64,000 nt of DNA from Escherichia coli (GTDB taxonomy: Bacteria > Pseudomonadota > Gammaproteobacteria > Enterobacterales > Enterobacteriaceae): the NCBI RefSeq assembly GCF_013315695.1, contig NZ_CP054353.1; one strand, 5' to 3'. Positions within the stretch are counted from its first letter, which is position 1, and each line of letters begins with the position of its first letter. Positions 41,380-42,716 of the stretch are shown here, one piece after another. The position numbers and the translations under genes were made by a program. The notes below the pieces were generated by a model, which was given only the letters and a program-made list of their open reading frames with translations, was not told the origin of the DNA and did not search any database.

Positions 41380-41768
41380 GGCATACCCTCACTCAATGCG
41401 TAACGATAATTCCCCTTACCTGAATATTTCATCATGACTAAACGGAACAACATGGGTCACCTAATGCGCCACTCTCGCAATTTTTCAGGCGGACTTACTA
41501 TCCCGTAAAGTGTTGTATAATTTGCCTGGAATTGTCTTAAAGTAAAGTAAATGTTGCGATATGTGAGTGAGCTTAAAACAAATATTTCGCTACAGGAGTA
41601 TCCTGGAAGATGTTCGCAGACATTATTTTCGGATAATCCTTAGGGTAGCATGATAAACGTTACGGAATTATATTAATGGTAATTCACTAATAATATCAGC
41701 CAGCAAATTAAAAATTTCACTGAATAAATGTTCGCAAAAAGGCGCAATTAACGGGTAATGACTCCAAC

Positions 41769-42272
41769 TTATTGATAGTGTTTTATGTTCAGATAATGCC
41801 CGATGACTTTGTCATGCAGCTCCACCGATTTTGAGAACGACAGCGACTTCCGTCCCAGCCGTGCCAGGTGCTGCCTCAGATTCAGGTTATGCCGCTCAAT
41901 TCGCTGCGTATATCGCTTGCTGATTACGTGCAGCTTTCCCTTCAGGCGGGATTCATACAGCGGCCAGCCATCCGTCATCCATATCACCACGTCAAAGGGT
42001 GACAGCAGGCTCATAAGACGCCCCAGCGTCGCCATAGTGCGTTCACCGAATACGTGCGCAACAACCGTCTTCCGGAGCCTGTCATACGCGTAAAACAGCC
42101 AGCGCTGGCGCGATTTAGCCCCGACATAGCCCCACTGTTCGTCCATTTCCGCGCAGACGATGACGTCACTGCCCGGCTGTATGCGCGAGGTTACCGACTG
42201 CGGCCTGAGTTTTTTAAGTGACGTAAAATCGTGTTGAGGCCAACGCCCATAATGCGGGCTGTTGCCCGGCAT
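41769..42272 (-). CDS. insB: IS1 transposase InsB frame (expressed as InsAB' by frameshifting)
   Basis: Track ORF 167 aa ..[54 protein letters not shown].. matches IS1 InsB. Confidence 0.85.
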
Positions 42273-42466
42273 CCAACGCCATTCATGGCCATATCAATGA
42301 TTTTCTGGTGCGTACCGGGTTGAGAAGCGGTGTAAGTGAACTGCAGTTGCCATGTTTTACGGCAGTGAGAGCAGAGATAGCGCTGATGTCCGGCGGTGCT
42401 TTTGCCGTTACGCACCACCCCGTCAGTAGCTGAACAGGAGGGACAGCTGATAGAAACAGAAGCCAC
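42191..42466 (-). CDS. insA: IS1 InsA protein
   Basis: 91 aa [43 protein letters not shown].. matches IS1 InsA. Confidence 0.9.
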
Positions 42467-42716
42467 TGGAGCACCTCAAAAACACCATCATACACTAAAT
42501 CAGTAAGTTGGCAGCATCACCTGAGGTGGTTTTATTTAATACGCAATATAGCGCCGCTTGATATTAGTTCTATTTTTTTTGCGTAAGATAGATGAGACAA
42601 ACTGAGACGCATAATGGTTTGCAAGGCTCTAATACTTTGATGTTGAGGATGTGATGGGGCATGTACGGGGCATAGTACAATGATGTCCATCCAGGTGTAG
42701 ATAATCTCCAGGCTTA

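Follow-up and report, generated by a model that had tools for sequence, protein, structure and literature searches.

A single IS1 element without a target duplication was found between rcsA and yedK in the 64-kb window (the whole stretch of E. coli DNA analysed here), and comparison with the phylogroup B2 strain UTI89 showed the removal of ~15.0 kb, from the 3' part of fliR to the spacer that follows yedK, including the fliE-fliR flagellar genes. The same pair of junctions was present in two complete genomes of human origin, and eight probes for the missing fli genes matched nowhere else in either chromosome. The loss would probably have followed an IS1-promoted adjacent deletion, and the strain is predicted to be non-motile while still carrying an intact H7 flagellin gene. 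The features on which this reading is based are as follows.

40034-40120: DsrA, intact (Rfam scan)
40756-41379, minus strand: rcsA, intact, 207 aa, left neighbour of the deletion (NCBIfam NF011940 RcsA, E 6.8e-121; so annotated in strains AF3 and MSB1_4I)
41380-41667, no strand: rcsA-fliR intergenic region, holding the rcsA promoter, kept unchanged, with K-12 and UTI89 collinear as far as the breakpoint
41668-41753, minus strand: 3' remnant of fliR, its final 86 nt (~28 of 261 codons; AF3 and MSB1_4I are annotated with a partial fliR pseudogene here)
41745-41753, no strand: left 9-bp flank of IS1, CAATTAACG, fliR sequence
41754-42521, minus strand: complete IS1 (IS1A-type), 768 bp (sequence read directly; IRL an exact match; NF033558 matches)
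41769-42272, minus strand: insB' (NCBIfam NF033558), overlapping insA, the two being joined by a programmed frameshift
42191-42466, minus strand: insA (NCBIfam IS1 transposase model NF033558)
42522-42530, no strand: right 9-bp flank of IS1, TGAGGTGGT, no copy of the left flank
42522-42716, no strand: spacer downstream of yedK, B2 type, 195 bp (sequence comparison with K-12 and B2 genomes)
42717-43385, minus strand: yedK, intact, 222 aa, right neighbour of the deletion (NF007413, E 3e-147; 0 aa differences from UTI89)
47128-52993, both strands: fliT, fliS and fliD (minus) and fliC, fliA and fliZ (plus), all full length, with no internal stops and 0-2 aa differences from UTI89

The element is the only IS1 copy in the window and is complete. 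Its left terminus is the IRR, which opens with GGTAATGACTCC... at position 41754, and its right terminus is the IRL, which closes with ...GGCAGCATCACC at 42521; as read in the window, the ends are IRR GGTAATGACTCCAAC... on the left and ...GTTGGCAGCATCACC IRL on the right. Over its 768 bp it carries terminal inverted repeats of ~23 bp (GGTGATGCTGCCAACTTACTGAT / GGTAATGACTCCAACTTATTGAT), the IRL being exact at 42499-42521, and both reading frames match NF033558 (E 7.5e-26 and 1.8e-42), as expected of an InsAB' transposase made by programmed -1 frameshifting. The identical element in AF3 and MSB1_4I is labelled by RefSeq as 'IS1A family transposase, programmed frameshift', and its transposase, WP_103215986.1, is common to AF3, MSB1_4I and E. 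coli B REL606. Insertion of IS1 usually duplicates 8 or 9 bp of the target (PMC12428005). Such a duplication of 8-9 bp was sought in the two 9-bp flanks and was absent, CAATTAACG and TGAGGTGGT being identical at only 1 of 9 positions. Given the duplication that IS1 usually leaves, these non-matching flanks indicate that the element did not arrive by a simple insertion. Both flanks read exactly as the initial annotation had given them, and its claim of an IS1 without target duplication between rcsA and yedK is borne out by the same comparison.

The left flank tracks K-12 as far as 86 nt before the fliR stop codon, and the translation of what remains of fliR gives its last 27 residues, equal to the C-terminus of UTI89 FliR. 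The left breakpoint is thus inside fliR and not beyond it, as had been supposed at first; rcsA and yedK are indeed brought together with IS1 between them, but the description of IS1 and short flanks as all that parts the two genes had overlooked the 86-nt remnant. To the right of IS1, no match was found in K-12 for the 179 bp at 42522-42700, and the K-12 match begins only 16 bp beyond the yedK stop codon. This 42522-42700 spacer is 100% identical in UTI89, CFT073, Nissle 1917 and other B2 genomes. In UTI89 the right-flank 9-mer is preceded by an AT-rich stretch ending in ...TTATTAATGTAAT, downstream of an ompC-like porin gene. Both sites are rich in AT, the surroundings of the spacer site at 78% and those of the fliR site at 58%. 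An Rfam scan of positions 38000-45000 returned DsrA only, with nothing at the junction.

Since K-12 lacks the 179-bp right flank, it was dropped as the reference for the deleted interval and UTI89 was chosen in its place as the intact B2 genome, which encodes the same H7 flagellin protein as the window. A distance of 14,998 bp separates the two flanks in UTI89 (positions 5002 and 20001 of the UTI89 segment, L004), and the alignment breaks at the first and last base of IS1, give or take one ambiguous G, so that the flanks are non-contiguous in an intact relative and part exactly at the termini of the element. With the whole of fliE-fliR lying between them there, the arrangement in the window is no chance feature. 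Missing with respect to UTI89 are the first 700 nt of fliR, fliQPONML, fliKJIHGF, fliE, emrE, ybcL, ybcM and the ompC-like porin gene. The last four of these occupy the slot between yedK and fliE in B2 relatives (UTI89, L004 16240-19683), where K-12 has yedL, yedN and intG; in K-12, emrE, ybcL and ybcM are genes of the DLP12 prophage region. The initial annotation, drawing on the K-12 map, had listed fliE-fliR together with yedL, yedN, yedM and intG as the lost genes. The flagellar part of that list holds, but the remainder does not: yedL, yedN, yedM and intG are particular to K-12 at this slot, and the lineage of the window never had them there. The variable yedK-fliE locus thus shows that gene lists taken over from K-12 fail for B2 strains.

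A search of 5,426 complete E. coli genomes found both junctions together in two, MSB1_4I, from a rectal swab in Australia, and AF3, from a blood culture in the UK. The window differs from both by a few SNPs and by the opposite orientation of a phage invertible segment, and so represents a third isolate or assembly, very closely related, of the same clone. Relocation of the lost genes was assessed with a chimeric query made of the two flanks without IS1 and eight reverse-complemented 300-bp probes drawn from fliE, F, G, I, K, M, P and the 5' part of fliR. While intact control genomes returned three places for this query, the MSB1_4I and AF3 chromosomes returned a single place, the junction itself, and none of the eight fli probes was found elsewhere in either. 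The absence of the fli genes is therefore that of two near-identical complete genomes. The 11-kb fli segment was also compared with 72,556 PLSDB plasmid records, of which 17 matched; the 15 matches listed of these 17 all proved to be replicons of 263 kb or more, either as large as a chromosome or mislabelled, with no plasmid from MSB1_4I or AF3 among them. An intact fliE-fliR elsewhere, which had been named at the outset as the finding that would overturn a deletion, was thus seen neither in the two carrier chromosomes nor on a true plasmid among the PLSDB matches listed. Each carrier genome (NZ_LR898874.1 and NZ_OZ547117.1) holds at least 40 IS1 pieces and many B2 genomes hold none; by the standard of phylogroup B2, the carrier lineage appears to have an unusual abundance of IS1.

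A single IS1, the lack of a target duplication and the loss of fliE-fliR together fit the earlier proposal of an IS1-mediated deletion or a recombination between IS1 copies, as opposed to a simple insertion. Between the two routes, we give slightly better than even weight to an IS1-promoted adjacent deletion, by intramolecular transposition, as the event that removed the ~15.0 kb. One IS1 would first have inserted at either of the present junctions, at the 3' end of fliR or in the AT-rich spacer that follows yedK. From there, an end of the resident element would have attacked the other site on the same chromosome, and the intervening DNA would have been lost, probably as a non-replicating circle, leaving a single IS1 between two unrelated 9-mers. 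Replicative deletions mediated by IS1 are established (Turlan & Chandler 1995; Reif & Saedler 1975, both as cited in PMC12428005 and PMC11950199).

A RecA-dependent homologous recombination between an IS1 in fliR and another, in direct orientation, in the yedK spacer is a serious competitor whose chances we put somewhat below even. It would leave a hybrid IS1 with the outer flanks kept, which is exactly the product observed, a single IS1 with non-matching flanks identical to that of an adjacent deletion. The abundance of IS1 pieces in the carriers makes a transient second copy plausible, and other lineages have IS1 near both ends of the interval, as in L3452210II, where it lies at fliQ and between ybcM and yedK. 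Against this, two prior insertions are needed and not one. Among the 5,426 complete genomes, IS1 at the yedK-spacer junction was seen in none except the two deletion carriers, leaving the two-copy intermediate unobserved, and no B2 genome had the IS1 insertion in fliR. It is for these three reasons that the adjacent deletion is preferred. A same-lineage intermediate of either route was looked for in the same 5,426 genomes and none was found. The junctions of simple insertions would read IRL + CAATTAACGGCATTAATG in fliR, or ...ATGTAATTGAGGTGGT + IRR in the yedK spacer.

An IS1 end lies close to the 3' end of fliR in 18 genomes. Strain C6 (L003 4048-4830) has a simple insertion of IS1 in fliR, oriented as in the window and at 1 bp from its junction (41745-41760); 8 bp are duplicated there, with ATTAACGG on both sides. 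This proximity marks the fliR site as a recurrent IS1 target, and a hotspot for IS1 may exist at the 3' end of the gene. C6 was considered as the ancestral intermediate and was ruled out by the 1-bp offset of its junction and by its unrelated background (~98-99% flank identity).

Two further explanations concern the deletion as such. Copies of IS elements are classic points of mis-assembly and this genome is rich in IS1, so that a repeat collapse might falsely have joined rcsA-fliR' to yedK with the fli genes really present. We regard such an artefact as very improbable, as MSB1_4I and AF3, sequenced independently in Australia and the UK, match the window base for base at both junctions, and the eight fli probes are missing from both chromosomes while the controls returned three places. 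A natural adjacency of rcsA and yedK in the lineage of the window, with IS1 simply inserted between them and nothing deleted, as the bare adjacency taken by itself would suggest, is refuted by the fliR remnant abutting IS1, the lack of a target duplication, the continuity of the right flank with its upstream sequence in 455 genomes, and the presence of fliE-fliR between the two points in both K-12 and UTI89 (the latter with a spacer-yedK flank 100% identical to that of the window), which also upholds the initial view that the two genes are not natural neighbours.

The genes absent from the locus are those for the MS ring, the C ring, the export gate, the export ATPase complex and FliE. Basal-body assembly requires FliF/G/M/N/O/P/Q/R/H/I/J/E, and with the genes for the MS ring, C ring and export gate lost no hook-basal body would be built. 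At the flagellar checkpoint, FlgM stays inside the cell when there is no hook-basal body and inhibits sigma-28 (FliA). With FlgM unexported and sigma-28 inhibited, the intact H7 fliC would be expected to be silent. The initial annotation had called fliC, fliD, fliS, fliT, fliA and fliZ intact, and this was upheld by the close agreement of all six with UTI89 given in the list above; fliC is of H7 type (585 aa) and its product, WP_000079688.1, is the same protein as in UTI89. From its gene content, the strain is thus predicted to be non-motile (H-) with a cryptic H7 flagellin gene. In-silico serotyping would call such a strain H7, while the lineage should be phenotypically H- and non-motile, and should be without TLR5-stimulating flagellin.

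In MSB1_4I, fliD carries a 75-bp in-frame deletion (L001 19229-20560) relative to the window (47928-49334), AF3 and UTI89, and encodes 443 aa as against 468. Weaker selection on the flagellar genes left in the lineage may lie behind this deletion.

A second lesion was observed in the window, where dgcQ, encoding a diguanylate cyclase, is present as two fragments (1-585 and 38077-39026) split by a Mu-like transposable prophage of ~37.5 kb at 586-38076. The prophage encodes Mor, Gam, a MuA-like integrase-core protein, an ExeA/MuB-like protein, a DUF935 portal and a Gin-like recombinase, and is flanked by a target duplication of 5-6 bp, ACTGG(T). A first assignment as P2-like, made from its tail genes, was replaced by Mu-like after fuller annotation. 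Next to its recombinase gene (37426-37998) lies an invertible tail-fibre segment at ~35755-37362, which the window has in the reverse of the orientation found in AF3 and MSB1_4I; this suggests an active inversion like that of a G segment. Staggered self-matches in the phage tail-fibre gene at 34665-35585 reveal tandem repeats inside it, ~168 bp in period and 91-95% identical.

With dgcQ split and the fli genes deleted, the lineage has lost both flagella and a cellulose-regulating cyclase. A broader reading can be built on this, in which a B2 human lineage (Australia and the UK; gut carriage and bloodstream) would have gone through an IS1 burst, with the fli deletion among its symptoms, and would be undergoing Shigella-like reductive change, with the flagella lost, dgcQ split and at least 40 IS1 pieces accumulated, and in which the 3' end of fliR would be a true sequence-specific IS1 hotspot. 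We consider this unlikely. Were it true, flagellar loss would be a high-frequency and possibly selected switch, serving for example TLR5 evasion or energy saving.

The closest known parallels also involve losses of flagellar genes linked to IS elements. In E. coli B (REL606/BL21), a single IS1 with the transposase WP_103215986.1 joins two truncated genes (uvrY'-IS1-'hchA) which K-12 has at a great distance from each other. The strain lacks the flagellar genes of region III and is non-motile (Yoon et al.); the lack of fliY-R and the non-motility of E. coli B are published (PMC3446290). The deletion in B is far larger, however, running from uvrY to hchA and taking fliC, fliA, fliZ, rcsA, dsrA and dgcQ as well, whereas in the window ~15 kb was lost, fliC/fliA/fliZ/fliDST, rcsA and DsrA were kept, and both the endpoints and the B2 background are different.

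A second parallel is the EAEC O104:H4 strain 1070/13, in which a laboratory-arisen excision of ~14.5 kb ended exactly at the terminal inverted repeat of an IS1A and truncated fliR, and was shown experimentally to abolish motility (PMC11950199). The two deletions are similar in size, with one breakpoint in the 3' part of fliR and an end at an IS1 terminus. In 1070/13, in contrast, the deletion runs away from the fli operon and takes the 3' 64 codons of fliR with neighbouring non-flagellar DNA, while that in the window extends into the operon, where it takes out fliE to fliR, and has become fixed in clinical isolates of two continents. IS1-mediated flagellar deletions in evolving MG1655 cultures are also cited in PMC11950199.

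Analogous IS-linked losses in the fli region were found in at least 10 other complete E. coli genomes. In at least nine genomes rcsA and yedK were joined by IS1 or an IS5-family element with no fli probe elsewhere. Examples are strains J2, CUPF06, ET665, G5, TA8571 and 361, together with the L3452210II clade: either rcsA and yedK have come to lie within a few kb of each other through IS1 or a member of the IS5 family, or IS1 has taken the place of fliF-fliP. Their endpoints, IS1 orientation and non-B2 backgrounds (~97-98% identity) differ from those of the window, and these are therefore independent events. The L3452210II clade comprises several genomes, with the WCHEC, N and AR strains among them, and was sampled in humans, pets and sewage. 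Its arrangement is fliQ'-IS1-fliE with fliF-fliP missing (L005, NZ_CP076527.1 5084-12012); the one genome examined, L3452210II, has a second IS1 between ybcM and yedK, and an rcsA with an internal stop.

Tominaga et al. (1994, as cited in PMC11950199) are reported to have described non-motile Shigella with cryptic flagellin genes. The likeness lies in an intact fliC while other flagellar genes are deleted or IS-interrupted; the difference lies in the organisms and the lesions, the window showing a single event in a B2 E. coli that is extraintestinal or commensal.

The exact junction pair of the window is known among complete genomes only from MSB1_4I and AF3, and the event thus has unique endpoints and a B2 background within a well-populated class of IS1-linked fli deletions. 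As such deletions are common and published, it is less unusual than the initial annotation had implied. The understanding of IS1 or of flagella is unchanged by the case, which adds one clean, clinically derived example to an amply documented pattern in which IS1 repeatedly removes flagellar region III of E. coli.
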